A DNA stretch of 53,608 nucleotides from a virus (Duplodnaviria; Caudoviricetes): positions 1 through 53,608 of the IMG/VR virus record IMGVR_UViG_3300025646_000055; one strand, written 5' to 3'. The position numbers and the translations under genes are program-made. Under the pieces are notes generated by a model. The model ran no database searches and had not been told where the DNA came from. It worked only from the letters and a program-made list of their open reading frames with translations. This document shows positions 10,707 through 53,145 of this stretch, in pieces (positions within the stretch are counted from its first letter, which is position 1; each line of letters opens with the position of its first letter).

Positions 10707-10713
10707 CTATTAT

Positions 10714-11184: not shown

Positions 11185-11188
11185 CAAA

Positions 11189-11292: not shown

Positions 11293-11297
11293 AGTTT

Positions 11298-11370: not shown

Positions 11371-11377
11371 CTTTTAT

Positions 11378-11450: not shown

Positions 11451-11456
11451 CAATAT

Positions 11457-11528
11457 TCCCCTTTAGCTCAGCGGTAGAGCAGAGAGCTGTTAACTCTAAG
11501 GTCGTTGGTTCGAATCCAGCAAGGGGAG
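11457..11528 (+). tRNA. tRNA-Asn(GTT)
   Basis: Cloverleaf, loop CTGTTAA. Confidence 0.93.
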
Positions 11529-11530
11529 CA

Positions 11531-11612
11531 AATACTTTTGGAAAAGTTGGCACTAGCACCACAGTTGCAAATGTAGGACTAGGTGTAGGTTCGAATCCTA
11601 CTATGAAGTGTT
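11531..11612 (+). pseudogene. degenerate tRNA-like remnant
   Basis: Intact T arm GTAGG-TTCGAAT-CCTAC; poor acceptor and D arms. Confidence 0.4.
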
Positions 11613-11672
11613 TACCACCGAGATGCTGCCGAGCTGAGGAGGTGGTTAAGAAATATCCCTAAATACGGACCA

Positions 11673-11746
11673 CGGTGTGTGGCCAAGATGGTTAAGGCAC
11701 CTCGCTGATAACGAGGAAATCGGAGGTTCAAATCCTCCCTCACCGA
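11673..11746 (+). tRNA. tRNA-Ile(GAT)
   Basis: Cloverleaf, loop CTGATAA. Confidence 0.9.
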
Positions 11747-11779
11747 CTCGTGTAAGAGCACTGTGCTCTAACATAACCT

Positions 11780-11853
11780 GGCGAGGTAGCTCAGTTGGTT
11801 AGAGCGTTGGAGTCATAACCCAAAGGTCATAGGTTCGATTCCTATTCTCGCTA
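11780..11853 (+). tRNA. tRNA-Met(CAT), elongator type
   Basis: GGCGAGG/TCTCGCT; loop GTCATAA. Confidence 0.85.
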
Positions 11854-11865
11854 CAAATAACTTTC

Positions 11866-12045
11866 CGCGACATGGAGAAGTGGGCAAGTTTTGATTTAAG
11901 TAATCAGAGTACTTTGGTTTCTTAAGAAAGGATTAGATTTTAAATGGTGGTGGAGTACTACACCTAATGGAAGTTACTAATCTTAGAAACGTATCTCGCC
12001 GGGGGCATGACCCGGAGATCGTAGGTTCGAATCCTACTGTCGCAA
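11866..12045 (+). tRNA. initiator-type tRNA-fMet(CAT) with ~108-nt D-loop insertion
   Basis: C1:A72 mismatch; CCGGG/CCCGG anticodon stem; loop GGCATGA; D stem GAGA/TCTC split by insert ~11884-11991. Confidence 0.75.
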
Positions 12046-12047
12046 CT

Positions 12048-12264
12048 AAAAGAACAACCTATCGCTCTACGGAGAGGAAACTCAGGACGGCACTGCTTAA
12101 GGTAGGAGATTCAAATTATAGGACCTGGATGTTGCCTATAATCCCTGAATCTCTTATACTACCGAGGCCGCAACACAAAACAGTCTATAAGGGTGAGCAG
12201 CTTGGATAAGGTAGTGGCAACAAGGTAAATGATAGGATAAACAGAATCCTGGTTATGTTCTTTT
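12048..12264 (+). ncRNA. rnpB: compact RNase P RNA-like gene
   Basis: P1 AAAAGAACA/TGTTCTTTT; P2 CCTATC/GATAGG; CR-I GAGGAAACTCAGGA; CR-V ACAGAATCCTGGTTA; CR-II/III-like GCAACACAAAAC and GGGTGAG. Confidence 0.8.
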
Positions 12265-12270
12265 AAATAT

Positions 12271-12346
12271 GGTGTCTGTAGTGTTAGTGGAATAAGCACG
12301 TCAGTTTGTGGTTCTGATAGGATGAGTTCGAATCTCATCAGACACA
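12271..12346 (+). tRNA. tRNA-His(GTG), G-1 encoded, A73
   Basis: Cloverleaf, loop TTGTGGT. Confidence 0.88.
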
Positions 12347-12351
12347 CTAAG

Positions 12352-12471
12352 AAGAGGCAGTTCAAGCTGTAGTTGAGAGGTAGAGTGTATTAATGTCTGA
12401 AAAAGGGTTTATAGTAGGATGGCGTCACTCATTGCACTCAACCAGAAACCCTGCAACACACGGAGCCTCTT
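12352..12471 (+). ncRNA. unassigned pseudoknotted RNA
   Basis: AAGAGGC/GCCTCTT closing helix; interleaved GTTGAG/CTCAAC and AGGGTTT/AAACCCT. Confidence 0.5.
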
Positions 12472-12480
12472 TTTTTTTAT

Positions 12481-12551
12481 GGTTCTTTGACCGAGTGGTT
12501 AGGTGAAGGTCTGCAAAACCTTTTACATTGGTTCGAATCCAATAAGAACCT
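12481..12551 (+). tRNA. tRNA-Cys(GCA)
   Basis: Cloverleaf, loop CTGCAAA, U73. Confidence 0.93.
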
Positions 12552-12564
12552 CAATTATTAATTT

Positions 12565-12648
12565 GGAGAGTAACCCTTGATGGTGATAGGGCTTGCCTGC
12601 TAAGCAATGTGTACATTCGTGTATATGGTTCGAATCCATTGCTCTCCG
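12565..12648 (+). tRNA. tRNA-Ser(GCT)
   Basis: Cloverleaf with variable arm, loop CTGCTAA. Confidence 0.88.
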
Positions 12649-12664
12649 CTAAAAAGGATAAGTC

Positions 12665-13120
12665 ATGAAAATATTTAAACGAGTTAACGGACAAAAGGTT
12701 ACGGATATTGTTGAATATACAATTGATATTATCCGTAAAGACCCATATGTAGAAATACATATAGGAACAGATTCTCAAAGTGAAGGTGAATGGACAACTT
12801 ATGTTACAGCTATTGCATATAGATTTGGTACAAGAGGTGTTCATTATATTTACCACAAAGAACGAGTTCCAAGAATACGTGATAGATACACTAAACTATT
12901 TAAAGAAGCTGAATTAACAATTGAATTAGCTGAATGGTTTACTAAGCGTGTTAAGAGTGTAAGAATAGAATTAGATTTTGATTACAATAAAGATGAAAGA
13001 TATTGGTCTCAAAAATTAATTAGTTCTACAGTAGGTTGGGCACAGGCTTTAGGATACAAAGTTAATGTGAAACCAGTTAAACAAATTGCTACAAGAGCAG
13101 CAGATTATCATTGTAGATAA
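12665..13120 (+). CDS. RNase H-like YkuK/DUF458-family protein
   Basis: IHIGTDSQ...L.KEAELT...IELDFD...KP...ATRAAD. Confidence 0.8.
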   Translation: MKIFKRVNGQKVTDIVEYTIDIIRKDPYVEIHIGTDSQSEGEWTTYVTAIAYRFGTRGVHYIYHKERVPRIRDRYTKLFKEAELTIELAEWFTKRVKSVRIELDFDYNKDERYWSQKLISSTVGWAQALGYKVNVKPVKQIATRAADYHCR

Positions 13121-13132
13121 TTTAAAAAAAAC

Positions 13133-13163
13133 TTGGATATTTAAGATATTGTTCGTATATTTA
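13133..13163 (+). promoter_or_regulatory. sigma-A-type promoter; boxA-like GTTCTTTGAAAT at 13311-13322
   Basis: TTGG-N19-TATATTTA. Confidence 0.75.
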
Positions 13164-13169
13164 CATATA

Positions 13170-13301
13170 ATGAAAAACAAAGAAAAAACTAAAGAAAAAA
13201 AAGAAGATTTTGGATATTTTGATAGGTATAAAAATCAAAATAACCCCAAAACTAAAAAAGAAACATTAGAAATTAGTTTATTTTCTAGATATAAAGATTA
13301 A
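13170..13301 (+). CDS. small Lys-rich peptide (43 aa)
   Basis: ATG a few nt after the promoter core; ends in a CTAGATA/TATCTAG hairpin. Confidence 0.45.
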   Translation: MKNKEKTKEKKEDFGYFDRYKNQNNPKTKKETLEISLFSRYKD

Positions 13302-13337
13302 TTTATCTAGGTTCTTTGAAATCTTGAAAAAACCAAT

Positions 13338-13410
13338 GCTTCCATGGTGTAACGGATGAGCACAAGGCCCTTCTAAGGCTTTAGTTTAGGTTCGAATCCT
13401 AATGGAAGTA
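13338..13410 (+). tRNA. tRNA-Arg(TCT)
   Basis: Cloverleaf, loop CTTCTAA. Confidence 0.92.
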
Positions 13411-13562
13411 CAGCTGTTATCTGAACTAGCACTAGGACGATAACTACCATCAGAGGAAGCTAGTCTCATGGATGGTCCTGTGGGTTGTGACCAGTACACA
13501 TAAAAAGACTCCCACCAAATAGAGTAGGTGACTGCGTTTTTGCATAAAGCTCTATTATTTAT

Positions 13563-13636
13563 CGCCCGTTCGTCTAGCGGTCTAGGACATCGCCCTTTCA
13601 CGGCGAAGATCACGAGTTCGAATCTCGTACGGGTGA
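13563..13636 (+). tRNA. tRNA-Glu(TTC)
   Basis: Cloverleaf, loop CTTTCAC. Confidence 0.93.
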
Positions 13637-13645
13637 CTATAACAT

Positions 13646-13733
13646 AGCAAGGATGAAGGCTGGTGGTGATGCCTCAGTAGTCTCATAAGCTACTACCTCA
13701 ATGAGGGTGCGGGTTCGATTCCCGCCCATGCAA
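13646..13733 (+). tRNA. atypical tRNA(CAT) with long D and variable arms
   Basis: AGTAGT-CTCATAA-GCTACT; CCTC/GAGG variable arm; mismatched acceptor. Confidence 0.6.
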
Positions 13734-13738
13734 CTAAT

Positions 13739-13823
13739 GCACTTGTGGTGAAATTGGTAGACACGCGGGACTTAAAATCCCGTCTCTATTGCAGAGGTGC
13801 CAGTTCGAGTCTGGCCAGGTGCA
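13739..13823 (+). tRNA. tRNA-Leu(TAA)
   Basis: Cloverleaf, loop CTTAAAA. Confidence 0.93.
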
Positions 13824-13831
13824 CATATATT

Positions 13832-13904
13832 GGTCCTATGGTTGAATGGCTACAATGCCACCCTGTCACGGTGCGCGGTACGGGTTCGAATCCCGTTAGG
13901 ACCG
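13832..13904 (+). tRNA. tRNA-Asp(GTC)
   Basis: Cloverleaf, loop CTGTCAC. Confidence 0.9.
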
Positions 13905-14033
13905 CAACTTAATACCGAATCGCGTTAAAGGTGAAGTAGATAACGTGTGGTGAGTTTGGAAGGTCTCACATAAAACAAAACCAAAACCTTAAGTCTACCA
14001 CGAAGAGGTGTTATCGGTGACCTCTTCATTTAT

Positions 14034-14107
14034 GGGCTGGAATGTTCCAAGGCTGGCGAATCTCCCTTGCACGGAGATTGTGGTGAGTTCGATTCTCACC
14101 TGGTCCA
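14034..14107 (+). tRNA. tRNA-Ala(TGC)
   Basis: G3:U70, loop CTTGCAC. Confidence 0.85.
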
Positions 14108-14200
14108 CATAAAAGTTGCGCAGTACGCGATTGACCGGAGTGTTTGAGACGTCCTTCCTCCAAGGCATCGATGGGTAACCAATCCCTTCCACTTTTATAC

Positions 14201-14272
14201 GCGGATGTAGTATAGTGGCTATTATGCCTGATTTCCAATCAGGAGATGTGAGTTCGATTCTCTCTATCCGCT
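14201..14272 (+). tRNA. tRNA-Gly(TCC)
   Basis: Cloverleaf, loop TTTCCAA, U73. Confidence 0.9.
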
Positions 14273-14277
14273 CAAAA

Positions 14278-14350
14278 GCGAGATTAGCTCATTTGGTAGA
14301 GCGTCTGCTTGCCAAGCAGAAGGTGGTCGGTTCGAATCCGATATCTCGCT
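14278..14350 (+). tRNA. tRNA-Gly(GCC)
   Basis: Cloverleaf, loop TTGCCAA. Confidence 0.93.
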
Positions 14351-14352
14351 CA

Positions 14353-14457
14353 AAAAGGTAATAAACTCAAAACCGAGCGATGCTTTAAAAAAGATTCACA
14401 ACTTTAGAGGTCGTTGAGTTGGGTGGTAGTAAATGTGAATACCACCTATTACCTTTT
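14353..14457 (+). ncRNA. unassigned three-way-junction RNA with loop-loop complementarity
   Basis: AAAAGGTAATA/TATTACCTTTT closing helix; ATTCACA/TGTGAAT kissing loops. Confidence 0.55.
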
Positions 14458-14463
14458 ATTTAT

Positions 14464-14542
14464 AGGGTAGTAGAGGAGTCAGGTTTATCTCGCTACATTT
14501 GGGATGTAGAGCACGCTGGTTCGAATCCAGTTTACCCTACCA
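14464..14542 (+). tRNA. tRNA-Pro(TGG), CCA encoded
   Basis: Cloverleaf, loop TTTGGGA. Confidence 0.9.
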
Positions 14543-14621
14543 TAGTATGGTCTAACAAATGCCTGTGCCAGAATGTCGACCAAAATGCAGGGATATGTAG
14601 GTAATGACTTACCATTTCACA

Positions 14622-14695
14622 GGTCCTTTAGCTCAGATGGTTAGAGCAACTGACTCATAATCAGTAGGTCGTAGGTTCAAATCCTACAAGGACCA
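14622..14695 (+). tRNA. tRNA(CAT), probably Ile2 (lysidine type)
   Basis: GGTCCTT acceptor; ACTGA-CTCATAA-TCAGT. Confidence 0.85.
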
Positions 14696-14725
14696 CTAAA
14701 AAATTAAAGGTTTTTTCAAGATAAT

Positions 14726-14794
14726 TTGGATGTTTGAAATTTTGTTTGTATATTTATGTATAATAAAGATTTAAAACAAAACGTTCTTTAACAT
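14726..14794 (+). promoter_or_regulatory. promoter (14726-14756) plus boxA-like CGTTCTTTAACAT (14782-14794)
   Basis: Motif match; directly upstream of the large RNA. Confidence 0.75.
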
Positions 14795-14804
14795 ATTAAA
14801 AAAT

Positions 14805-15750
14805 TTAGGGTTGCTTGAAATCCTTTCAGATTATTATTGACGCGTAACAGTCCGGCTGACGATTATGTAATAGTTTGATAAAGAGTAATGAGCCGTAAGG
14901 CTACGAAAGGGGATAGTCTCACACTACCTCGCTTGGCAACAAGTTCATTCAAGCAAGCAACGTTCTAAGCTCTACCTAAGAGCGCTGTCGGACCAACCGG
15001 CAGATAAGGAGAAAGTTAGTGGAATAAGTCCCTTAGGAAAGGATAAAACCAGAGCCGATCGGTGAGGTTAAAATGGGTAGCTCCATGCTTATCCATGCTA
15101 AACTAACAAAACCTGAACAGAATAAGTTGTAGAATATGAGTTTGAGTCTCGCTAAGACAAAGGCAAGTATTCATTATAAGAGGTGAAAGGGTAATATATA
15201 TAACTCCCGGAGTAATCTTGAAGTAAGGCACAGTAGGATTAGCAGTCCGAAACGCAGTTGGCGTGTCATATTTTGTAGCTCAAAAGGTTATGAAGTGACT
15301 GTTGGGGCACGTCAAAGTGAGTTAAATAACTTGTAAGTTAGCTCAGTTGGTAGAGCATCTGTCTCTTAAACAGAATGTCGAAGGTTCAACTCCTTCACTT
15401 ACTATATGAATAATATAGAATAAAAAACGCAAAGCCCCCAACGATAGTGAAAAACAAATCACCTAATTCCGTACTCAAAAGAGAATACGGAGCTTTCAAA
15501 ACTCGCAAGGTAGAGAAAGTTTGATTGGATTTCGCACCTAATTTCTTAGCGGAAATGAATGGCTCGCAAGGTCAGGGGAAGAAAAAAAATCGAGTAGTTT
15601 CACTATGACATGAGAAATGCCACTCATTAAAAAAGGCGGTGATGTTGCTAGACTTCCTTGGTGGGAGTGGATAAGTTTTTAACAAGTAGGTTTGCCCCTA
15701 TTTGGTACGAAAATGAAGGTAGTAATATATAACGTATAATCTCAGCGTTT
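14805..15750 (+). ncRNA. large (~950 nt) structured ncRNA, GOLLD-like; ends approximate
   Basis: No ORF in the track; higher GC than flanks; many GNRA hairpins; CCACTC/GAGTGG long-range pair; ends TAATCTCAGCG + T-run; adjacent to a tRNA array. Confidence 0.7.
15332..15404 (+). tRNA. tRNA-Lys(CTT) nested in the large ncRNA
   Basis: TCTGT-CTCTTAA-ACAGA; canonical D and T arms. Confidence 0.88.
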
Positions 15751-38195: not shown

Positions 38196-38642
38196 ATGTG
38201 GTTATATAAAGAAAAAGAAATACAAACAGTTGAAGATTTTGGAGAAAATTCCCCATTTGGGTTTATTTACATAGTTACACATCTTCCTACAGGTAAAAAA
38301 TATTTAGGTAAAAAATCTTTATTTCATACCTTAAATAAAAAATTAGGTAAAAAAGAACTTGCACAACAACCTGTTACAAGGGGTAGAACTAAAACAACAA
38401 AACAAATAATAAAAGAATCTGATTGGAAAACATATTATGGTTCAGAAGAATTTATTAAACAAAAAATCAAAGAAGGTAAACAAGAAGAATTTACTCGTGA
38501 AATAATACAATTAGTATATAGTAAAAAATTACTTACATATTTTGAATGTAAATATCAATTTATGTATGGTGTATTAGAAAACACAGACTGGGTAAATAAT
38601 AATATTTTAGGAAAGTTTTTTAGTAAAGACTTTGATATTTAA
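38196..38642 (+). CDS. GIY-YIG family nuclease
   Basis: GFIYIVTHLPTGKKYLGKK...YYGS. Confidence 0.75.
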   Translation: MWLYKEKEIQTVEDFGENSPFGFIYIVTHLPTGKKYLGKKSLFHTLNKKLGKKELAQQPVTRGRTKTTKQIIKESDWKTYYGSEEFIKQKIKEGKQEEFTREIIQLVYSKKLLTYFECKYQFMYGVLENTDWVNNNILGKFFSKDFDI

Positions 38643-40408: not shown

Positions 40409-41374
40409 ATGATATCATTATTAAAATTAATATTAGAGGATAATGGTAATCCTAAAGGTATTATACTAGCTGGAGGTGCTGGTGTTGGAAAATCATATGT
40501 GGTTAGAAATTTATTAGGAGATTTAAATGAAAAAACTGGAATTTTTACCCCTAAAGGTTCAAATTTAAAATTTAAATATATGAACCCTGATGATATTGTA
40601 GAAAAAGAAGGAACTTCTTTGGGGGTAGCTATGGGGAAATTTAAAGAAATATTCCAGGATGCTCAAAATAAAAAAGAAAATATCATTTGGGATACTACCG
40701 CAGCTAATATCAAAAATACAATGGCTCAAATGCCGGGGTATGATAAATTTATGGTTATGGTTTATACTCACCCTATAATTTCGTTGTATCAAAATGCAAA
40801 AAGGGAAAGAACATTACCTATGGAAGCTGCTATTAAAACTTGGGATGGTGTTTACAGTAATATAGAGGAATATAAAAAATTATTTGGAGATAAATTTGTT
40901 TTAATTAAAAATGTTATCCCTGGATATGAAAAACAGGTTCAAGAATTTGATAAAGCTGTAGCTGGTGGTAAGGATAGTTTAAAACAATACTTAGAAAATT
41001 TAATAGCTAACAATCAAGAACAATTTAAATCTTCATTTTCAAAAGAATTTGAATTTGAAAATAAAGAAATTGAACAGGCGTTTAATGATGCTTTACCTGA
41101 AACCTCTTACGATGAGAAAAAAGATAAGAGTATTTTAAAAGGAGTGAAAAAAGAATTTCAAAAAGATTATTTAAAAAAGAATGAAGATCCTGGTTCTAAA
41201 GTATTAGAAAAAAAACTCCAGTCAGCTCGTAATACAAAAGAAAAAAATGAACAAAATTACAATGAAGATTTAGAAGGTATTGTTAATAAATTAACATCTT
41301 CTAAATTTAAAGAAATTACCGAACCTAATTCTGAAGAAGATATCAAATCTAAATTTAATTCTTTTTTAAAATGA
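40409..41374 (+). CDS. P-loop kinase (zeta toxin / AAA_33-like)
   Basis: LAGGAGVGKS, NPDD, IWDTT, NAKRER. Confidence 0.8.
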   Translation: MISLLKLILEDNGNPKGIILAGGAGVGKSYVVRNLLGDLNEKTGIFTPKGSNLKFKYMNPDDIVEKEGTSLGVAMGKFKEIFQDAQNKKENIIWDTTAANIKNTMAQMPGYDKFMVMVYTHPIISLYQNAKRERTLPMEAAIKTWDGVYSNIEEYKKLFGDKFVLIKNVIPGYEKQVQEFDKAVAGGKDSLKQYLENLIANNQEQFKSSFSKEFEFENKEIEQAFNDALPETSYDEKKDKSILKGVKKEFQKDYLKKNEDPGSKVLEKKLQSARNTKEKNEQNYNEDLEGIVNKLTSSKFKEITEPNSEEDIKSKFNSFLK

Positions 41375-43887
41375 ATGAATTGTCTCAATTTTTAGTAGAT
41401 AGCATTTTAAATGAAGCTGAATCTGATGTAATTACTGCTTTATTTGGGGGAGGTTTTAAACCACCTACTAAAGGCCACTTAGAGGTAGTTTTAAAAGCTA
41501 TTCAAGACAACCCAGAAATAGACCAAGTTTATATAATTGTTGGAGCCGGGGTTAGAAATGGCATTTCACAAGAACAATCTGTTAAAATCTGGGAGAAATA
41601 CAAAAAATTAATCCCTAAAACTACAGAAATTATAGAAGCAGGTTCTCCTATATCTTGGATAAAAGATTATTTAAAAGATCATTCTGAAGATAAAACCTAT
41701 ATTTTAATAGGGGCTAGAGAGGGTGATGAAGAAGATGAAAAAGATTTAGAACAAAGATCCAATTTACTCCAGAAATATGGGGGTGAAATAAAACCTATTT
41801 ATACTAAAGGTGGAATTAGTGGTACAAAAGCAAGAGAAGCTGCTAAACAATCTAAAGAAGCATTCTACCAATTTATCCCTGATCAATTTTCAGATTCAGA
41901 TAAAGAAGAAATTTATAATATTATAATACCAACACTAAATGAGGTAGATGAATTAAAAGAAAATTTAAATGAAAATGCTACATATTCTTCAGATATAGAT
42001 TATAAACAACATATTAAAGAATTAACTAAACATATGTTAGAGAAGGGTATGAATATTACCCCATTACCAAAAGTAATATTTAGAAATGGTGATAGTAATA
42101 ATGCACGTAATTTCTTTGGTAAAACAGCATATTATGACCCAAATACTCAAACTATAGTACTTTATACTGAGGGTCGTCATCCTAAAGATATTGTCCGTTC
42201 ATTTTCCCATGAAATGATACACCATATCCAAAATTTAGAAGGCAGATTAGGTAATATACAGGGTACAAATACAATGGAAGATGACCATTTAGATAAATTA
42301 GAACAAGAAGCTAATTTAAATGGTACAATGACATTTAGAAATTGGACTGATAGCTTAAACGAAAAGAAAAATAAAGATCCATTTGGTATAAATCAATATG
42401 CTCGTGAATTAGCTAAAGGTTTAGAAGAAGAATTAGACGAAGGTCGTAAAAAGAAAAAAGACCCTAAAACCGGTACAGGTAAAAAATTAGATATACCTGG
42501 TGGATTAGAAGAAGGTAAACAAGTTGGTCTTTTATATCATTTTACTAGTACAAATTCATTAGATAAAATATTAAAAGATAATAAAATAAATGGTTCTTTT
42601 ATGTATGAAGTAGGTGATAAAGAATTATATGGTGTTTCTACTACTCGTAATAAAAATTTAAATTATGATCTTCAAAGAAATAATGTAAGAATAACTCTTG
42701 ATGGTAATAAATTATCTAATAATTATAAAATAACTCCTAGAGATTATTTTGAAAGACAATATAATATTCCTGATAACCCCCAAACAATTGATGAAGACGA
42801 GGAAGTTATTTTAACACCTAAAGGATACATTAATAATATAAAAAATTATATTTTAGCTGTTGATAAAGTAAAAGATTTAGAAGAAAGTAGAAAAAAGAAA
42901 AAAGACCCTAAAAAAGGAACAGGTAAAAAACCAGAAGGATCTGGTCGTAAAAATTTTAATGTAGAAAACGTAAGACAAGTTCCTATAAATGAAAATGTTC
43001 CTAGTGCCAAAGATGATGGTAAAGCTACCCCTTATGGTTCAGGGTATGAAAAAGTTAAGGAAGAAATGTTCCAATCTTCAAAAATTGAAAACCAACTAAA
43101 ACAAAAATACTTAGAAGTATTAGAAAAACTTTTCTTATTTGAAAAAGGTAATTATATTGAACTTAATTTAATTAAAATTAAACCCGAATATAAAGGTAAA
43201 GGATGGGCTACTAAAATATTAGATGATTTATCCGAATATGCTCAAGAAAATAATAAAATATTAACATTAACTCCCTCAGATACTTTTGGAGCTTCTAAAT
43301 CAAGATTAGAAAAGTTTTATAAACGTTTTGGTTTTGTTCCTAATAAAGGAAAAAATAAGGATTTTACTACTAAAGATACAATGATTAGACCCTTAAGTGA
43401 AGATACAAGTGAATTATTTACTATCTATTTGGATATGGATGGTGTTATTGCTGATTTTGATAAAAGATTTACTGAACTAGCAGGTATGGGTCCTAGAGAA
43501 TATGAAGATTCTTTTGGTACTGAAAAATTTTGGGATTTTATTGATAATAAACACGGTGTTAAGTTTTGGACTGGTATAGAATGGATGCCTGAAGGTCAAA
43601 AACTATACAATTTTGTTAAACAATTTGACCATAAATTACTATCAGCCCCTTCAAGAAATGATGCTTCTAAAATAGGTAAAAGAATGTGGGCTAAGAAAAA
43701 TACCCCAGGAACTCAATTGATATTAGCTGCAGCTGTTAACAAACAAAATTATGCTGATAAATCTAATATATTAATTGATGATAGAGAAAAAAATATCCAA
43801 CAGTGGAAAGATGCTGGTGGAATAGGTATTTTATTTAAATCTACAGATCAGGTTATTGATGAGTTAAAAAAGATTATGAATTTATGA
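41371..43887 (+). CDS. multidomain protein: HIGH-type nucleotidyltransferase + zincin + ART-like + GNAT + HAD nucleotidase
   Basis: GGGFKPPTKGH; HEMIHH; LYHFT..VSTTRN..EDEE; YKGKGWA..FYKRFGF; DMDGVIADF..LIDD. Confidence 0.8.
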   Translation: MNELSQFLVDSILNEAESDVITALFGGGFKPPTKGHLEVVLKAIQDNPEIDQVYIIVGAGVRNGISQEQSVKIWEKYKKLIPKTTEIIEAGSPISWIKDYLKDHSEDKTYILIGAREGDEEDEKDLEQRSNLLQKYGGEIKPIYTKGGISGTKAREAAKQSKEAFYQFIPDQFSDSDKEEIYNIIIPTLNEVDELKENLNENATYSSDIDYKQHIKELTKHMLEKGMNITPLPKVIFRNGDSNNARNFFGKTAYYDPNTQTIVLYTEGRHPKDIVRSFSHEMIHHIQNLEGRLGNIQGTNTMEDDHLDKLEQEANLNGTMTFRNWTDSLNEKKNKDPFGINQYARELAKGLEEELDEGRKKKKDPKTGTGKKLDIPGGLEEGKQVGLLYHFTSTNSLDKILKDNKINGSFMYEVGDKELYGVSTTRNKNLNYDLQRNNVRITLDGNKLSNNYKITPRDYFERQYNIPDNPQTIDEDEEVILTPKGYINNIKNYILAVDKVKDLEESRKKKKDPKKGTGKKPEGSGRKNFNVENVRQVPINENVPSAKDDGKATPYGSGYEKVKEEMFQSSKIENQLKQKYLEVLEKLFLFEKGNYIELNLIKIKPEYKGKGWATKILDDLSEYAQENNKILTLTPSDTFGASKSRLEKFYKRFGFVPNKGKNKDFTTKDTMIRPLSEDTSELFTIYLDMDGVIADFDKRFTELAGMGPREYEDSFGTEKFWDFIDNKHGVKFWTGIEWMPEGQKLYNFVKQFDHKLLSAPSRNDASKIGKRMWAKKNTPGTQLILAAAVNKQNYADKSNILIDDREKNIQQWKDAGGIGILFKSTDQVIDELKKIMNL

Positions 43888-44486: not shown

Positions 44487-44663
44487 ATGGGAATATTTGA
44501 TAAATTAAAATACGGTAACACTTTTGGTAAAACAGTTTCAATTAAAGATACTGTAGTAAAACAATATCCAAAAGAGATAAAACAAGTAGAAGAACCTATA
44601 GTTGAAAAACCTAAATCAAAAAAGAAATCAACCCCATCTTTGGATATCGAAGAAACCCTTTAA
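44487..44663 (+). CDS. small hypothetical protein (58 aa, MGIFDKLKYG...)
   Basis: Read manually; follows an ATATTTATA motif. Confidence 0.6.
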   Translation: MGIFDKLKYGNTFGKTVSIKDTVVKQYPKEIKQVEEPIVEKPKSKKKSTPSLDIEETL

Positions 44664-47267
44664 ATGTTTAAAATGAAAGACTTAAAAAAAATACAAGAAT
44701 TCTTTTCTAAACCTATAAACGAAGAAGAAAAATCATTTGCTGATTATTCTAATAATGAGTTAGCAGCATATCTTAAAAATAATCCTACAGATACAAAAGC
44801 ATCATCCGAACTTCATAAACGTTCTCAAAAACTTAAAGCTTTAACTAGAACAGATGAATCAGTAAACGAAGGCATGTATAAAAAAGAAGGATGGCTTGTA
44901 AAATCAAATGATGATGATACTAAATATATTGTTGTCCATACATCTGATGTAGAAAATAAATCAAATAGAATTAGTGATATTTATAAAGATAAAAAACTAG
45001 CTATCAAAAGAGCAGCTTTTCTAAACAAAAAATTAAGAGGATTGGATGAATCTATACTAAGTGAAAAGAAACCAAGTAAAATAGTTTGGGATACTAAAAA
45101 AATTTCTGCTGCAAAAAGAATCAATGTTAGAAAGTGGTACATGAAAACCTATCCTATCGATGAACTTGGCGGTGAAATAAATCAAAAACTTACACTATGG
45201 GATGTTTACACTTACTTATCACAGGGGTATGATGTATATAAAGTTATCGGTGTATCTGATAGTGTTATAAGAGAAAGAGTATTTGAAAAACTATCTAAGG
45301 TTCTTGATGTTGATTACGATACTATTTACAATATGTTTGAATCAGTAAATGAAGCTCAGTTTAAAGACTTACAAATAGGAGATGAATTTTTAAGATTTGG
45401 TAAAAATGGCCAACTTTGGGTAAAAACATCAGACAGGCAAGCCAAATTTGTGAAAAATGTGGGTAAAAAAACAGCTAAATATAACAAAAGTTCGGGTTCA
45501 TTAGAGGTTTTTCCACCAACGATGGATATAACCTTAGAATCAGTAAACGAGGCAACCCCTATTCAAAAGATTTTTCGTAAGATAGGTTGGGGTGGTGATT
45601 GGTGGACTCCACAAGATTATGCAAAACAGATAAAAAATTTACCTGATAACACTTTAAAAATTTGGTATAACTCTGCTAAATCTAATAAAGGTATTCCAAA
45701 TACTCCACTAGCATTTCAACAAAAATTAACAAAGATTGAAATGGAAAAGAGAGGTCTTTTAGAATCAGTATATGAAAATAATCTAGGACATGCTGAAGTA
45801 AGAAAAGTAGAAAAAAATTTATCTCTTGCTCAAAAAGAAGAGTTATCTAAATTAATAAAATCTGGAAAGATTAAAACAAGTGATGATCTTAAAAATTGGC
45901 TACCATCCATAAAAGAATCAATAAATGAACAAGAATACGCTAAACCATCTATCAGTGATTACAAAGTAGGTGATATTCTTAAATTTAAAGATGGAGAAGA
46001 ATGGTTAGTTGTTAAACCTGGAATGAGGGGATCTTCTAATCGAAGAAATTCTGATGAAATTACCATCAAACCTTATAATAAACTAGCAAAAGATAGAAAC
46101 GTTAGTTTAGCTATTGATGCTACTATATCATATCTAAATGATGTAGTTGATAAGATCATTAAAAAATCAGCTGATAATGTTAATGAAGCAATTATAAGTA
46201 ATAATCTAGATAAAATGGTCGACCTAGTTGTAGAAGGTGCTGAACCTAAGAATGTACTAGAAACTAAAGAAGAAGATCTTCAACTAAAAAATCTCCATTC
46301 TAAAATAGAAAAATATTATGGTAGAAAATTAGAACCTAGCCAAATTAATACACTCCAGGGTAAAGATAAGGTAATATCTAATTTATTATCACAATATCGA
46401 AAATTATCTAGAAGTTTAAACGAACAAGAAGAAGATCCAATCGATATCATCACAATGGATGTTCCATTATTTATCCGTGTTTTAGAATATGCTAGAGAAG
46501 ATGCCCAAGCAGATATGGATTTACACGATTTAACTGAAAAAGCAATTGCCGCTACTAAACAACAAGGTATACTCCAGATGGACGATTATGATATGTTAGT
46601 TGGTGAATTAGAGCAATTAAATGAAGAATTTCTTAACCCAGGTAAAAGACCTATTATAACAAATAAACAAGGTGAAAAATTTGTTTTACAAGGATTTACA
46701 ATTGGGGGATATTATTTAATTCCATATGATGGTTATAAATATTGGGAGCATTTTAGAGTACCTAAAGAACAATGGATACCAGAAAAATCAATTAATTGGG
46801 GTGATTATAATTTTACTCAACAACAATTTGAAAAACTTAAGGCTTTTAACAGTGAGAAAGAAAAAGAAGTAAATAAAAAATTTCAAGATATGAATGAAAT
46901 CCAATCTTTAGAAGATCAAGCTAAAGTTTATTGGATGCAACAATTAAAAGCTGGTAAAATTGATAAACTACCTAAAGATCCTAAAGAAGCATTTTTAATC
47001 CAAATGATGAAAGATCAAATAGATCACGATGAAGAAACTTTACGTCGTGAACGTGGTTTAGAAGAAAAAATTCGTGAAATCATTGAAACTATTAAATTAG
47101 GTCAAAATTTAAATGAATCTACACTTTGTAAAAGAGGTCAGGACTACATTAAAGCAAGAAAAGCTGCCGGAGAAAAATCATCAGCTTATCTTTCAGGTCG
47201 TGCAGTAAAAGTATGTAAAGGTGATATTAAATTTAAAGGTAAAAAACAAAAAGATTTTAAAGGATAA
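44664..47267 (+). CDS. modular protein with ESVNE-type linkers (putative head-cargo polyprotein)
   Basis: A dozen or more short unrelated segments separated by ESVNE/ESINE/LNE. Confidence 0.8.
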   Translation: MFKMKDLKKIQEFFSKPINEEEKSFADYSNNELAAYLKNNPTDTKASSELHKRSQKLKALTRTDESVNEGMYKKEGWLVKSNDDDTKYIVVHTSDVENKSNRISDIYKDKKLAIKRAAFLNKKLRGLDESILSEKKPSKIVWDTKKISAAKRINVRKWYMKTYPIDELGGEINQKLTLWDVYTYLSQGYDVYKVIGVSDSVIRERVFEKLSKVLDVDYDTIYNMFESVNEAQFKDLQIGDEFLRFGKNGQLWVKTSDRQAKFVKNVGKKTAKYNKSSGSLEVFPPTMDITLESVNEATPIQKIFRKIGWGGDWWTPQDYAKQIKNLPDNTLKIWYNSAKSNKGIPNTPLAFQQKLTKIEMEKRGLLESVYENNLGHAEVRKVEKNLSLAQKEELSKLIKSGKIKTSDDLKNWLPSIKESINEQEYAKPSISDYKVGDILKFKDGEEWLVVKPGMRGSSNRRNSDEITIKPYNKLAKDRNVSLAIDATISYLNDVVDKIIKKSADNVNEAIISNNLDKMVDLVVEGAEPKNVLETKEEDLQLKNLHSKIEKYYGRKLEPSQINTLQGKDKVISNLLSQYRKLSRSLNEQEEDPIDIITMDVPLFIRVLEYAREDAQADMDLHDLTEKAIAATKQQGILQMDDYDMLVGELEQLNEEFLNPGKRPIITNKQGEKFVLQGFTIGGYYLIPYDGYKYWEHFRVPKEQWIPEKSINWGDYNFTQQQFEKLKAFNSEKEKEVNKKFQDMNEIQSLEDQAKVYWMQQLKAGKIDKLPKDPKEAFLIQMMKDQIDHDEETLRRERGLEEKIREIIETIKLGQNLNESTLCKRGQDYIKARKAAGEKSSAYLSGRAVKVCKGDIKFKGKKQKDFKG

Positions 47268-47707
47268 TGAAGGATTTTGATTTAAAAAAATACCTAAAAG
47301 AAGGTAAATTATTTGAAGCTATAATGGCTTGTCCTTTACCTACTCAAGATTTAGAACTTAACACTAAAAATAGAGATTCTGCTATTAAAGCTGACTATAT
47401 TAAATATGGTCCTTTAAATGTTGATGAACCAGGAGATTATTGGGAAGAATTAGCAGAACACTGGGATACAACTGTTGAAGCTGCTAAACAATCACTTTGT
47501 GCCAATTGTGCTGCTTTCGATATTTCTCCTAGAATGGATGATTGTATGCCTGGTCCTTTACAAGATAAAGATGGTAGATTAGGATATTGTTGGATGCATA
47601 GTTTTAAATGCCATTCAGCACGTACTTGTAGAACTTGGGCTAAAGGAGGTCCTATTACTGAAGATAAAATATCTTATGAGTGGCAAGAACGTAAAGGAGA
47701 AGAATAA
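47267..47707 (+). CDS. Cys-rich protein with FDLKKYLKE leader
   Basis: CANCAAF...YCWMHSFKC...TC..W. Confidence 0.75.
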   Translation: MKDFDLKKYLKEGKLFEAIMACPLPTQDLELNTKNRDSAIKADYIKYGPLNVDEPGDYWEELAEHWDTTVEAAKQSLCANCAAFDISPRMDDCMPGPLQDKDGRLGYCWMHSFKCHSARTCRTWAKGGPITEDKISYEWQERKGEE

Positions 47708-48011: not shown

Positions 48012-48854
48012 ATGGACAACTTTGATTTTAAAAAATACTTAGCTGAAAGCAAATTGCATGAGAACATGGCTGTAGAAATAACAGCAAAAATTGCTCAAAA
48101 AATAGCAGATGCTTTTACAGCTGATGATGATCTAGACCTTAAATATGTTGTAAATCCTCGTATTGACGCAGGTTCATTCGATCTTGATGTTGAAGCAGGT
48201 CCTAACACCCCTGGTGAAGATTCACTTGGTCAAGATATCGATAACTACCTTGGCGAATTCGCAGGTGGTTCTTTCTATATTAAAGACGGAGTAGTTTATA
48301 ATGCTGCTATGCGTAATGCTCCGGTTGCCAATGTAACCCCAGAAGGTGAAGTTGAAATGATCTCAGCTGCAGATTCAAGAGCAGCCATTGATTCACAAGA
48401 TGATATCCCAGCAATTGATAGAATGTATAACTCTGATGCTTGGGTGCAAGCTCAAAGAGATGCAATGGGAGAATCTAAAGAAGAAAAAAAATCAAATAAA
48501 ATGAAAAAATCCGAATTAAAAGAAATGATCCGCCAAGCAATGCTTGCTGAGACTAATTCTATAAAAGAACAAGAAGAAGAAGTAGCTGATGAAATTGAAA
48601 TTGAAGGTGAAGAAGAAACAACTGAAGAACCTGAAATAAAAGATGGAGAAGATACTCCTGAATTAGGTGGTAGTAACCAAAAAATCTTAAATGATTTAGA
48701 AGCAGCTTTAGAAGGTGCCAAACAAATGGGAGATGAAAAACTTGTAAATCAAATAGGTAATACAATTACATTTTTTACTCGTCAATATATTGTAAAAGAA
48801 GAAGATCTATTTGAAATAAAAAGAATGAAACGATTAGCTGGAATTTTAAAATAA
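48012..48854 (+). CDS. acidic modular protein with FDFKKYLAE leader
   Basis: Internal MKKSELKEMIR; C-terminal RMKRLAGILK. Confidence 0.75.
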   Translation: MDNFDFKKYLAESKLHENMAVEITAKIAQKIADAFTADDDLDLKYVVNPRIDAGSFDLDVEAGPNTPGEDSLGQDIDNYLGEFAGGSFYIKDGVVYNAAMRNAPVANVTPEGEVEMISAADSRAAIDSQDDIPAIDRMYNSDAWVQAQRDAMGESKEEKKSNKMKKSELKEMIRQAMLAETNSIKEQEEEVADEIEIEGEEETTEEPEIKDGEDTPELGGSNQKILNDLEAALEGAKQMGDEKLVNQIGNTITFFTRQYIVKEEDLFEIKRMKRLAGILK

Positions 48855-48876: not shown

Positions 48877-49047
48877 ATGAATACACAAGAATTAAAAGAA
48901 AAAATTGATGCTTTATACGAAGTATTTACAATGGAACACGAAGGTAAATCTAAAGCAGCACATGGTAGAGCTCGTAAAGCATTAGGTGAAATTAAAAAAC
49001 TTATAACTGAATACAGAAAAGTATCAGTTGCTGAAGATAAAAAATAA
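48877..49047 (+). CDS. histone H1-like (Hc1-type) small protein, 56 aa
   Basis: Absent from the ORF track; GKSKAAHGRARKALGEIKKLITEYRKVSV resembles Bacteroidota Hc1-like proteins. Confidence 0.7.
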   Translation: MNTQELKEKIDALYEVFTMEHEGKSKAAHGRARKALGEIKKLITEYRKVSVAEDKK

Positions 49048-49051
49048 AAAC

Positions 49052-50596
49052 ATGCTTAACGAACGCAAACTTACCAAAGCTGAACTCAATAAGAGAGAGG
49101 ATATTATTAAAGACATGAAAAAAAACAAAAGTGCCTTAGTTAAACGTTATGGTAAGGATGCAGAAAAAGTAATGTATGGTCGCGCTACTAATATAGCTAA
49201 AAAACAAGCAGAAAACATGGAACAACCCAATTCTAGACTTAAAGAAATGATTAAGGATGCTTTAAAAAATCCTAAAAAAGCTGATTTAAATAAAGATGGT
49301 AAACTTTCAGATTACGAGAAAAAACGTGGTGCTGCTATTGAAAAAGCTATGGGGAAAGAAACTTTAAAAGCAAAAGACAAAATAAAAGAAGCTCGAATTT
49401 CTTCGGATAATAGAGTAGAATATCTTCAACATGTTTTAGATATGGTTTGGAAAAGAGGTAGAGAGAACAATCAAATTGATTTAAAATCATTATCCCAATC
49501 ACTTGTTGATGACATGTTTGATGAGTCCTATGAGGAAAAACGTGATGTTACTATTGAAAAAGCTATGGGGAAAGAAACTTTAAAAGAAGGTATCCCTACA
49601 GATTTATCACCTCTTGCATTTAATATTTTACATCATTCTCTTAGAAGGGGGTATATTACTCTTGAAGAAGCTACAGATGAAAGCGTAATAGGTGTAGCTG
49701 AAGAAGTTGCAGGATATCATGAAGATGATGAAGAAATTGGTTCAAGCGATATGACCTTTATTGTTAAAGAATTTTTAGATGGTATTGGTAAAAAAACTGA
49801 TTTTGAAAATGGGCGCTTAGTAGTAAGTAAAGATGAGGAATCCAAATTAGTAAGAGAAGCATTTTTACTAGATACTGATATTGAAGATATCGCTACCGCT
49901 TTAGGTTATTCTGATATATACAGTTTCTTTGAAGATAACCCGGGTGCTGTTGATGCTATCTATGATTGGGTTAAAACGGTTCCTGAATATAGAGATAAAC
50001 TTAAAGATGCTGATTTAAAAGAAGATTTAGATCTAGGTCATCAGGATAATGAACCAAATATGCTTAAAAAAGATTTATACCATATTGGAAAATATGCTAT
50101 GGAACTATATCAAATGATGGTTGGTTTAGAAGGTATGGGAGAAGTTGATTTTCCACACTGGTGGCAATCCAAAATAATCAAAGCTAAAGAAATGGTTTCT
50201 TCAGCTAAACATTATTTAGAATTTGAAACTAAAGAACCTGAAATTGATGCTATGGTAGATGTTGCTCAAAGTGTTGAAGCTATTGATGAAAATGCAGATA
50301 AATGGAATAAGATGAATGCTGATGAAAGAGAAGAAGCCCTATTAACTGTATTTAAAGACCCAGATGATGCTTTAAAATATATTGATTTTAAATGGAGTGA
50401 TCTTCCAGATATTGCTATTTCAAATTTACGTTTAAAAGAAATAAAAAAAGAAGGTTTAAGAGGGTTAATGCACAGTTCAAGTAAAGAGGCAAGAGCTAGA
50501 GATACTGAAGAAAGTGATAGAGAATATATAAGAACTAGACAACAAAGAGAAAAAGAAATAGCAGCTAAATTAGCTAAACAATTAAAGTCTAAATAA
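49052..50596 (+). CDS. modular protein with LxE linkers and EF-hand-like loop (start revised)
   Basis: ADLNKDGKLSDYE; duplicated IEKAMGKETLK. Confidence 0.75.
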   Translation: MLNERKLTKAELNKREDIIKDMKKNKSALVKRYGKDAEKVMYGRATNIAKKQAENMEQPNSRLKEMIKDALKNPKKADLNKDGKLSDYEKKRGAAIEKAMGKETLKAKDKIKEARISSDNRVEYLQHVLDMVWKRGRENNQIDLKSLSQSLVDDMFDESYEEKRDVTIEKAMGKETLKEGIPTDLSPLAFNILHHSLRRGYITLEEATDESVIGVAEEVAGYHEDDEEIGSSDMTFIVKEFLDGIGKKTDFENGRLVVSKDEESKLVREAFLLDTDIEDIATALGYSDIYSFFEDNPGAVDAIYDWVKTVPEYRDKLKDADLKEDLDLGHQDNEPNMLKKDLYHIGKYAMELYQMMVGLEGMGEVDFPHWWQSKIIKAKEMVSSAKHYLEFETKEPEIDAMVDVAQSVEAIDENADKWNKMNADEREEALLTVFKDPDDALKYIDFKWSDLPDIAISNLRLKEIKKEGLRGLMHSSSKEARARDTEESDREYIRTRQQREKEIAAKLAKQLKSK

Positions 50597-52299: not shown

Positions 52300-53145
52300 A
52301 TGTGTAAATGTGGATGTAATACTTGTGATGTTGAAAAATCAACGTTAATACTTAATGAAAGCTTAGCTCCACGGGGTATACTGTCTGAAGGTCTTAAATA
52401 TCATTTAGACCATAAAAAACCGTTAACAGAACATATTTATCGTGCTGGTTCTGAAAATTATTTTAATTTATGGGCTGAAGCCCGTTCTTTATATTCTCGT
52501 AATATTTTAGAGATTACAAATGCAGATGATTTAGCAGTTTTAACTGAAACAGATTTAGGTCATTTTGGTATATTAGAAAATGGAACTAAAGTGCCTTTAG
52601 ATTTTCCTATGGTGAATGAAGAAGAAATAGGTGAATTCCCATTTGAATACAAAGGATTCAAATACAATGTAGAAGATACAGGTGGGATGATTGATGGCTA
52701 TGGTAGAAAAGTATGGCAAGTTTCAATCCAAGATAAAAATGGGGATGTAGAAACTACAAACGTAAGAGGTTCTAGTGATAGAGAAGGTCATCAGGAAGCA
52801 AAAAAATTCATAGAAGATGAATTGTTACCTTACTATGGATTAGACGAGGCAGCTAAGAAGAAGAAAAAAGATCCACCAATTGGAAAACCAATGCGTGATT
52901 CATCAGGTGGTAAAGCATACAAAGTATACGTTCGCGACCCTAAAACTAAAAAAATTAAAACAGTACGTTTTGGTTCAGGTGGGTTAAGGGCAAAGTTAGA
53001 TAACCCTAAAGCTAGAAAAGCTTTTGCGGCTAGACATAAATGCGGTACTGGGGAACCAAAAACAAGTGCGCGATATTGGTCTTGTAGAATTGGTAGATAT
53101 TGGAAATTATTAGGGGGTTCAAAAAACTTTAGTGGTTTTTGGTAG
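52300..53145 (+). CDS. modular protein with basic C-terminal domain
   Basis: LNE/VNEE/LDE junctions; KVYVRDPK..VRFG..ARHKC..ARYWSC. Confidence 0.75.
   Translation: MCKCGCNTCDVEKSTLILNESLAPRGILSEGLKYHLDHKKPLTEHIYRAGSENYFNLWAEARSLYSRNILEITNADDLAVLTETDLGHFGILENGTKVPLDFPMVNEEEIGEFPFEYKGFKYNVEDTGGMIDGYGRKVWQVSIQDKNGDVETTNVRGSSDREGHQEAKKFIEDELLPYYGLDEAAKKKKKDPPIGKPMRDSSGGKAYKVYVRDPKTKKIKTVRFGSGGLRAKLDNPKARKAFAARHKCGTGEPKTSARYWSCRIGRYWKLLGGSKNFSGFW

Follow-up and report, generated by a model that had tools for sequence, protein, structure and literature searches.

Based on the comparison of an uncultured T4-related water phage with its relatives, we propose that an open reading frame of this phage (44664-47267) probably encodes a capsid-targeted cargo polyprotein, which is cut by the prohead protease and whose cassettes are exchanged at the linkers between them. 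In the proposed mechanism, the precursor chain (a short leader and twelve small unrelated units, with a linker between units) would be cut after each linker Glu by a gp21-type prohead serine protease (Peptidase_S77), so that the units become free within the head. Some of them, at least, would then exit the head together with the DNA, and the conserved 15-nt linker DNA would supply the short homology for in-frame exchanges. We tentatively go one step further, with slightly less than even confidence, and suggest that the linker is dual-use: a cut site as protein and, as DNA, a silent-site-identical in-frame recombination site through which cargo may be traded among otherwise unrelated T4-related aquatic phages. 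No description of this kind of gene was found in the literature searched.

The window (the whole 53,608-nt stretch of DNA that was analysed) is a fragment estimated as ~33% complete. The open reading frame consists of a 20-aa leader followed by 12 mutually unrelated units of 49-96 aa each (5-11 kDa, basic for the most part; Table 1). Translation probably begins at the second ATG (44673) rather than at 44664, because the homologs open with M-K/E-D-L-K-K-I-Q-E-F-F. The leader, with 17-20 residues and an I-N-E end, fits the T4-type propeptide rule of an N-terminus terminated by L/I-X-E, and T4 capsid-targeting propeptides are given as 10-19 residues long in passages of PMC9026906. The strict leader motif is N-terminal in 56 of the 120 homologs listed, other variants ending in L-K-E, L-E-E or I-D-E. 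Within the window, the neighbours of the cassette gene are replication genes and further leader-bearing genes, and portal or capsid genes are not adjacent. The frame at 49028-50596 (522 aa), suspected of being a capsid protein from its size and position, was rejected, since it encodes a charged repetitive protein with no capsid match. The T4-late-promoter-like TATAAATA is absent from the + strand directly before the cassette gene, and no integrase family was reported by Pfam or PHROGs among the 46 window ORFs scanned.

Table 1. Window coordinates of the cassette polyprotein gene, of its leader and units, and of the neighbouring polyprotein A.
Feature	Coordinates	Strand	Length	Closing linker	Remarks
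Cassette polyprotein gene	44664..47267	+	867 aa		probable true start 44673
N-terminal leader	44664..44723	+			ends P-I-N-E; candidate capsid-targeting propeptide
Unit 1	44724..44870	+	49 aa	ESVNE, 44856-44870	pLDDT 83-97 (residues 21-60)
Unit 2	44871..45065	+	65 aa	ESILSE, 45048-45065	
Unit 3	45066..45353	+	96 aa	ESVNE, 45339-45353	pLDDT 87-94
Unit 4	45354..45551	+	66 aa	ESVNE, 45537-45551	
Unit 5	45552..45776	+	75 aa	ESVYE, 45762-45776	
Unit 6	45777..45929	+	51 aa	ESINE, 45915-45929	joint 45926 to 46422 in run X9
Unit 7	45930..46187	+	86 aa	NVNE, 46176-46187	
Unit 8	46188..46424	+	79 aa	SLNE, 46413-46424	
Unit 9	46425..46625	+	67 aa	QLNE, 46614-46625	acidic
Unit 10	46626..46898	+	91 aa	MNE, 46890-46898	
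Unit 11	46899..47117	+	73 aa	NLNE, 47106-47117	
Unit 12	47118..47264	+	49 aa		pI 10.1; basic two-Cys C-terminal unit
Polyprotein A	41371..43887	+	838 aa		same build, enzyme-like units

An earlier note on this DNA had described unrelated units of ~45-100 aa strung on a conserved linker, and this description proved accurate. The five nearly identical ESVNE-type 15-mers (at 44856, 45339, 45537, 45762 and 45915) are present, as are all the ESILSE, NVNE, SLNE, QLNE, MNE and NLNE junctions; with unit boundaries set by the linker motif itself, no pair of units was alike below E = 0.07, and in the unit-versus-unit comparison the linkers were the only stretches common to any two units. The 15-mer pattern, allowing at most two mismatches, matches the window eight times (five of them within the cassette frame), against a mean of 0.88 and a largest count of 4 in 100 shuffles. 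At the protein level the consensus is Glu-Ser-Val-Asn-Glu, that is, a hydrophobic residue, Asn and Glu, and [LIVM]-N-E occurs 10 times in the cassette protein (1.0 expected from residue shuffles), compared with once in a 2261-aa neighbour protein (2.12 expected). Across the 120 proteins listed (query included) there are 500 such sites versus 78 expected, and in 349 of the 500 the Glu is followed by Ala, Glu, Gly or Ser.

The same build is seen in polyprotein A, with six [LIVM]NE sites versus 1.24 expected. Its matches are to GNAT and NT5C, and those to a nucleotidyltransferase and a HExxH peptidase are weak; its counterparts are a 1252-aa protein in the syntenic relative L001 and separate genes in the relative G006, and relatives appear to add a ParB-like unit, recognised by its motif only.

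The units recur in other phages in many other orders and as short stand-alone proteins, as had been predicted, and collinear homologs over the full length were not seen: the best listed homolog covers 36% of the query, and the 120 shorter homologs listed fall into 33 architectures. For instance, a gene in L151 has a short leader ending in L-N-E followed directly by G-M-Y, with which unit 2 begins; a different unit replaces unit 4 in P0003; P0054 and P0055 have unit 5 by itself (91% identity); L008 carries its unit-7 homolog as a gene of its own (164 aa), immediately downstream of the prohead protease; and unit 11 lies in a different gene of L001 (12631-13590). Unit 9 is the most widespread internal unit (79 of the 119 longer and 103 of the 120 shorter homologs listed), and unit 12 is conserved in 78 of the 120 homologs listed, lying inside the last 60 aa in 68. 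The AF2 model likewise favours independent units: its pTM is 0.32, and at 8 of the 12 junctions the surrounding segment has a pLDDT under 50 (binomial p = 0.008), but junction 508 (NVNE, after unit 7) lies inside a long predicted helix, and junctions 745 and 818 are outside the low-confidence segments.

At the DNA level, these differences coincide with the linkers. At the place of the 867-aa cassette gene, L001 carries a 654-aa gene, and the two have in common only the leader, a linker-bounded block of 477 nt (46422-46898, 97.1% identity over its 477 nt) and a diverged last unit. The homology blocks with L001 end 0-4 nt from linker ends (41947, 42365, 44723, 46422 and 46898), and the DNA matches of unit 3 (97.1% identity to L356 over 315 nt, 87-88% to L002-L004) all stop at most 6 nt from the linker end. 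Among metagenome joints (scored at 90% likeness, several having sides of only 30 nt), contigs of the independent run X9 join 45926 to 46422, which brings two linkers together and skips 495 nt in frame; the overlap at the linker is 9 bases, and one side measures 164 nt. Loose contig ends occur at 44723/44724 in runs X1, X2 and X4. Units flanked by 15-nt linkers, with breakpoints at these linkers, have the arrangement of an integron-like or PeSL-like cassette system. Comparison among these phages shows the units to be exchangeable cassettes, whose gain, loss and replacement occur at the linkers. From the breakpoints and the one 9-nt overlap, we infer that the 15-nt linker itself may mediate the recombination.

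The linker DNA is constrained at silent positions, as the earlier note had observed: all 5 linkers of the frame encode Ser as TCA (background 0.316), and GTA is the codon at all 4 Val positions (background 0.482), with a joint product of ~1.7e-4, calculated post hoc. In 53 further linkers from other phages, a sample baited with the consensus 15-mer and with one matching site per frame dropped, Val is GTA in 45/45 (background 0.50) and Asn is AAC in 42/53, while Ser is TCA in 31, TCG in 12, TCC in 5 and TCT in 5, and AGY in none. Sites ascertained from the protein, a small unbiased sample of 18, gave AAC in 16/18 and GTA in 12/13; the anchor-based sample for unbiased codons consists mostly of short proteins, with only 5 ES[VI]NE sites. 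The conservation does not reach past the 15-16 nt of the linker. A possible, if doubtful, explanation is that the silent constraint reflects accurate and fast decoding of the cut site by phage tRNAs rather than recombination, and that breakpoints lie at linkers only because other in-frame joins are inviable. Such decoding would agree with the tRNA anticodons in the window (TTC, TGA, TAC and GTT, which form exact Watson-Crick pairs with GAA, TCA, GTA and AAC), with a Ser third base that is free to vary among phages, with AAC being somewhat raised at other [LIVM]NE sites too, and with the confinement of the conserved DNA to the linker. Nevertheless, the natural joint with its shared bases and the homology blocks ending within 4 nt of linker ends speak for recombination, and the uniform use of GTA far exceeds usual codon-accuracy effects.

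The claim that the units are mini-effectors found no support, no unit being given a function by Pfam, PHROGs, PDB, Foldseek or Atlas. In particular, Pfam reported no family at cut-off for the cassette frame or any of its 12 units, and nothing above threshold came from PHROGs, from the PDB sequence search, from Foldseek against PDB (with the AF2 model) or from Atlas look-ups for units 9 and 3. The sole match in a phage collection (31%, residues 539-663) was to two records of an uncultured 735-kb phage, and the sole DNA megablast match was 42 nt of a Cronobacter phage nucleotidase gene. The interpretation of the array in the earlier note stands in part: the different orders, stand-alone genes, non-collinearity, linker breakpoints, silent constraint and differences in content agree with it, whereas the effector role is unsupported.

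The chain might also be cut and yet serve as scaffold or core filler, like T4 gp22, gp67 and gp68, with its fragments expelled and having no host role. These T4 proteins are likewise substrates cut at several L/I-X-E sites in the prohead, and gp21 cutting of the T4 core proteins gives many fragments, according to passages of PMC9026906 and PMC5694885. Filler would fit units with no recognised effector domain, the presence of unit 11 inside an acidic scaffold-like gene in L001, and a weak match of unit 6, and of unit 6 only, to T4_CASP (PF25623; 14.4 bits, E = 0.028, the cut-off of 27 bits not being reached). We nevertheless consider it unlikely. The units are 60-97% identical across phages that otherwise share almost nothing, which is hard to reconcile with filler; gp22, gp67 and gp68 are conserved assembly proteins, with no mosaic of exchangeable folded units; and the sister polyprotein holds the enzyme domains GNAT and NT5C. 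Additionally, most units are basic, as are those T4 internal proteins which remain with the DNA.

The reading of the linker as a putative protease site draws on its fit to the gp21 motif, on the protease family in relatives and on the head-module context. T4 gp21 recognises L/I-X-E and cleaves behind the Glu, as was initially observed at a Glu-Ala bond, and a change of this Glu to Asp prevents processing of the T4 leader (passages of PMC9026906); the cleavage sites of Alt are ITE-6 and LTE-619 (passages of PMC5694885). L/I-X-E is, for its part, very short as a motif. The window, ~33% of a genome, has no match to PF03420 (Peptidase_S77), and the presence of the protease is inferred from relatives; judging by synteny with G006, its gene would be expected ~9 kb past the end of the window. 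This family is above cut-off in three of the four records holding unit homologs and in two of the five baseplate-protein relatives of the window (including the 95%-complete G006), and the four records with no match are all 29-62% complete. In L004, two such polyproteins have the protease on one side and the scaffold and capsid genes on the other, and the protease genes of L004 and L008 themselves open with propeptide-like stretches ending in I-N-E.

That the protein stays uncut, as one long multidomain protein in which ESVNE is a favoured flexible linker surviving domain shuffling, seems quite unlikely to us. Packaging or transfer in unprocessed form is described for some polyvalent proteins (passages of PMC5512222). 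A flexible linker would not, however, call for what is seen at all 12 junctions (a terminal Glu, a hydrophobic residue two positions earlier, and small residues next), nor for the same motif at the end of the N-terminal leaders of many stand-alone genes, nor for the separate leader-bearing genes in which relatives such as G006 carry units that are fused elsewhere.

Very unlikely, in our assessment, is cutting by another protease, either a host enzyme or the HExxH metallopeptidase-like unit of polyprotein A (residues 247-338). L001, G006 and the cultured Flavobacterium phage vB_FspM_immuto all have this unit conserved, and autoproteolysis by MPTase domains is proposed for polyvalent proteins in passages of PMC5512222. 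Against this, its DUF6782 match is below threshold (16.3 bits, cut-off 27), the unit is itself linker-flanked like any other cargo unit, and the signature published for the gp21 family is cleavage after a Glu that is preceded, two positions upstream, by a hydrophobic residue.

An assembly artefact, with sequence from different phages fused by the assembler wherever segments are shared, is scarcely credible: Logan contigs do break close to linkers, and sequencing depth is 10-30 times as great over the leader and unit 12 as over the array (which implies that many co-occurring genomes share these parts), but a 15-nt repeat falls short of usual assembler word sizes, contigs of independent runs cross several linkers with at most one difference (X1, 45338-46481; X2, 45338-46356), and the array of vB_FspM_immuto, an isolate genome, is built in the same way.

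The proposed cargo polyprotein resembles several known systems. T4 IPI, IPII, IPIII and Alt also have a short leader ending in hydrophobic-x-Glu, and the T4 internal proteins are small, mostly basic, unrelated apart from the leader and variable in repertoire between related phages (passages of PMC9026906, PMC12373910 and PMC3012670); the gp21-family protease of that system is here found in relatives. In T4, however, each internal protein has one gene and one cut site, whereas here up to 12 units are fused in-frame, through a linker with a fixed Asn before Glu and a constraint at the DNA level, and sequence similarity to the T4 internal proteins was not found. Polyvalent proteins (Iyer et al. 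2017, PMC5512222, in the passages available to us) likewise join many unrelated domains in one polypeptide near virion genes, with extensive mosaicism, and their co-delivery with DNA and proteolytic release of domains have been predicted; the 12 units, and the head-module context known from L004, correspond to their 2-15 domains and virion-gene context. They are defined, though, by recognisable enzymatic or DNA-binding domains, with processing ascribed to embedded peptidases; none of these domains (MuF, MPTase, ART, DdrB-like ParB and others) was found in the cassette frame, its neighbour having GNAT and NT5C, and the passages of PMC5512222 describe no stereotyped linker, prohead-protease site or DNA-level junction. 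The PeSL cassettes of Arbiol et al. 2010 (PMC2839356) also use short conserved flanks as linkers for the modular shuffling of small accessory genes, and these authors relate PeSL shuffling to the variable internal-protein loci of T4-type phages. PeSLs differ in being intergenic, about 100 bp long, and in carrying a promoter and terminator, while the present linker has 15 nt, lies within the frame and encodes the presumed cut site; the resemblance to integrons and PeSLs is one of design, by analogy, and not of homology.

If the cargo reading is true, a single gene with a single leader would bring into the phage head an entire complement of small proteins that can change rapidly, extending the T4 internal-protein idea to a modular format; inhibition of host restriction enzymes has by now been established for all three T4 internal proteins (passages of PMC12373910). 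It would also provide a rule by which uncultured phages could be searched for capsid cargo (a leader together with [LIVM]-x-E joints), as well as existing cleavable linkers with which foreign proteins could be put into phage heads. The dual-use reading, if true, would describe a plug-and-play cargo array within one open reading frame, and a natural case of selection acting on one sequence as protein and as DNA alike. The existence of a cultured carrier, vB_FspM_immuto, makes the reading open to testing. This phage has an 841-aa gene with 7 sites versus 0.72 expected; no paper on its virion was found in the literature searched. An example of a gene in this cultured carrier is immuto26A_192.

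Sequence comparison establishes that the target ORF (867 residues; coordinates of all features are collected in the table) is a modular array of small units, that breakpoints between related genes fall at its linkers, and that the linker DNA is constrained at silent sites. The five 15-mers listed by the earlier note are all present where it placed them, and the 15-mer pattern has eight matches in the window (mean of 0.88 in shuffles), five of them inside the target ORF. The junction motif [LIVM]-N-E occurs ten times in this ORF, against 1.0 expected, with ESILSE and ESVYE in addition, and splitting after each glutamate yields a 20-residue leader followed by twelve units of 49-96 residues (5-11 kDa, with a pI above 8 in nine of the twelve). 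No likeness was found between the units of this ORF, the linkers being the sole stretches that they have in common, and the linker array is a real feature of it. The probable start codon of the gene is the second ATG (44673), since that is where homologs begin.

The cassette reading requires homologs that are not collinear with the target, and, among the best 120 of the 202 proteins of similar length (E ≤0.001), BLASTP coverage of the query is at most 36% for every match except the query itself, with identities of up to 94% inside the matched parts. Both the reordered and the stand-alone units that the earlier note expected were found: P0005 runs from leader-unit 1 to units 10-11, then 6, then 12, in P0010 units 11-12 directly follow unit 9, and unit 9 is a separate small gene in the syntenic region of G006 (a 155-kb relative, 95% complete, with a baseplate protein 65% identical to that of the window). 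In the same region, the HExxH and NT5C units of the sister polyprotein are also separate small genes. Shorter homologs number 692 (E ≤1e-5), and the 120 listed of these comprise 33 architectures, the smallest (158 residues) being made of the leader, unit 9, a stub and unit 12. For matches of at least 55% identity, 50 of 96 starts and 80 of 96 ends lie within eight residues of a junction (about 23.5 expected), many of these ends being simply the C-terminus of the homologous protein. The protein immuto26A_192 (841 residues) of the cultured Flavobacterium phage vB_FspM_immuto fuses homologs of ORFs 49028 and 50596, which are separate in the window (a homology assigned by reading the printed translations), and carries [LIVM]NE seven times (0.72 expected), with a 15-mer of this type coding for one of the sites. 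Mapping without composition correction also produced long alignments for a few proteins (P0102, P0112, P0118), at 22-25% identity; with a BLASTP coverage of 6-12%, these were taken as compositional rather than as collinear homology.

Exchange at the linkers is visible in the DNA of L001, a 47-kb record syntenic with the window and 86-92% identical in the flanks. In place of the target gene, it holds a gene of 654 residues that has in common with the target the leader, the block of units 9-10 and the last unit (79% identical), while units 1-8 are missing, with other units instead, and unit 11 lies inside a different gene. The block of units 9-10 (477 nt, 97.1% identical) begins 2 nt ahead of a linker end and stops exactly at another, and the distance to a linker end is 0-4 nt for each of the homology-block ends at 41947, 42365, 44723, 46422 and 46898. 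The sister polyprotein has 838 residues in the window vs 1252 in L001, where it contains extra units. Locus L356 matches unit 3 with 97% identity over 315 nt, and loci from phages with next to nothing else in common with the window match it at 87-88%; among 14 genes of L004, matches to the window are limited to unit 3 and one small ORF.

Population data came from four runs, each of a different study, whose Logan contigs were placed at 90% likeness. The array is real DNA, since contigs of X1 (45338-46481) and X2 (45338-46356) span it with at most one difference. A 2478-nt contig of X9 carries a joint from 45926 to 46422 (with a side of 164 nt) by which units 7-8 are lost in frame (495 nt), the nine letters common to both sides being the linker Glu codon and the next two codons. 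Further joints and loose ends (44723/44724, 44871, 44876 to 45333, and 46629) may originate in related phages instead of variants of the window phage, because several have short sides and placement was at 90% likeness. In X1, X2 and X4, contig depth at 44608-44711 (leader) and 47000-47103 (end of unit 11) is 10-30x the depth elsewhere in the array, so the leader and the region before unit 12 must be common to many co-occurring genomes.

The silent-site conservation of the linker, also claimed previously, holds, and is stronger across phages than inside the window, where Ser is TCA in 5/5 and Val GTA in 4/4. Thirteen other ES[VI]NE sites, from loci found by protein similarity, read GAATC[A/C/G], then GTA or ATA, AAC and GAA (Val GTA 9/9, Ile ATA 3/4, AAC 12/13, and Ser as TCT or AGY 0/13). 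The consensus 15-mer, used to scan the viral collection, matched at least 131 stretches, of which 80 loci were taken; in these, matches within a single locus are always spaced by a multiple of three (24 of 24 spacings), and the open frame around the match has at least 100 residues in 72 of the 80. With one bait site per frame dropped, 53 further ES[VI]NE sites have Val as GTA in 45/45 (background 0.50), Asn as AAC in 42/53 (0.38) and AGY Ser in none (0.24), the third Ser base being variable. Conservation of the linker DNA ends at the edges of 15-16 nt. This constraint may stem either from recombination (or gene conversion) within the linker or from translational selection, as the window encodes, for each codon of the consensus, a tRNA that pairs with it exactly.

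T4 gp21 cleaves after Glu in L/I-X-E, as originally seen at a Glu-Ala bond, the capsid-targeting propeptides of T4 internal proteins (10-19 residues) are removed at L/I-X-E, and foreign proteins fused to the T4 leader are packaged and delivered (PMC9026906); in Alt, the cleavage sites are ITE-6 and LTE-619 (PMC5694885). Every junction of the target ORF consists of a hydrophobic residue, any one residue and Glu, and, across the target and its listed homologs, 349 of 500 sites have Ala, Glu, Gly or Ser directly after the motif Glu. The leader of the target closes with the junction motif (its middle residue varying among homologs), leaders with like endings stand on many stand-alone genes of these phages, and the leader may resemble that of T4. 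We infer cleavage of the linkers by the prohead protease, loading of the units into the capsid and their delivery, as well as any effector role they might have. The protease family PF03420 is matched above cut-off in three of four records holding unit homologs and in two of five baseplate relatives, the records without a match being 29-62% complete; judging from the gene order in G006, the protease gene of the window phage would be expected past the window end. L004 has two polyproteins of this type between its protease gene and its scaffold and capsid genes, and a ParB-like motif occurs in one of them. The prohead protease match at L092 (G007:C1:50206-50733) has one in-frame TAG.

An AlphaFold2 model of the target ORF, built from an 80-row mosaic alignment (mean pLDDT 65.9, pTM 0.32), predicts confident small domains in units 1, 3, 6, 9 and 11. 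Eight of the 12 junctions fall within segments of pLDDT <50 (p = 0.008) and a ninth three residues from such a segment; junction 508 lies inside a long predicted helix, and junctions 745 and 818 at helix ends.

The window, an IMG/VR virus record (53,608 bases, estimated to be 33% complete), has a G+C of ~28% over most of its length. Based on its baseplate genes (myovirus gp25 and J types) and on the portal protein of its relative G006, which is 60.7% identical to that of vB_FspM_immuto, the phage is by sequence a distant relative of T4, probably infecting aquatic Flavobacteria; the vB_FspM_immuto annotation includes T4-type portal, prohead protease and gp23 capsid genes. All six runs with at least half of the window's sampled words are labelled freshwater metagenome.

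Closest among known systems are the internal proteins of T4 and their leader (all three proteins inhibit type IV restriction enzymes; PMC12373910), polyvalent proteins as defined by Iyer et al. (PMC5512222), and modular shuffling by way of PeSLs (PMC2839356). Searches of open-access literature yielded no account of a comparable array, in which units follow one another in frame with a stereotyped linker that carries a cut site.

Features of the window, by nucleotide position
Feature	Position	Observation
DUF932 gene	581-1381	near left end
Imm5-like immunity-protein gene	3084-3620	near left end
HNH endonuclease gene	6503-6883	possible homing element
tRNA array	8414-15405	29 genes
tRNA gene	10465-10540	anticodon not named by ARAGORN
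SegE-like GIY-YIG endonuclease gene	38196-38642	possible homing element
Zeta_toxin-like P-loop kinase gene	40409-41374	
Sister polyprotein	41371-43887 (+)	GNAT and NT5C matches; weak nucleotidyltransferase and HExxH peptidase matches; [LIVM]NE 6 vs 1.24 expected
Target ORF	44664-47267 (+)	leader and units 1-12
Leader gene	47267-47707	
Leader gene	48012-48854	acidic scaffold-like tail
TATAAATA	18407, 22469, 25095, 47992, 48859 (+)	upstream of gene starts 18422, 22485, 25107, 48012, 48877

In other phages, cassette polyproteins (P0003, P0022, P0049, P0055) end with a kinase similar to the Zeta_toxin-like one. The basic motif R-K-K-K-K-D-P-K-x-G-T-G-K-K, present twice in the sister polyprotein (42.4-42.9 kb) and in similar form in ORF 52300 (52300-53145), might represent another type of junction. 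Both leader genes open with M-x-[DN]-F-D-[LF]-K-K-Y-L, closing L-x-E, and similar leaders start genes in L004 and L001. The tabulated copies of TATAAATA, which resembles the T4 late promoter consensus, lie 9-15 nt upstream of gene starts; the window holds 27 copies vs 16.2 expected, and one shuffle in 100 attained that number.
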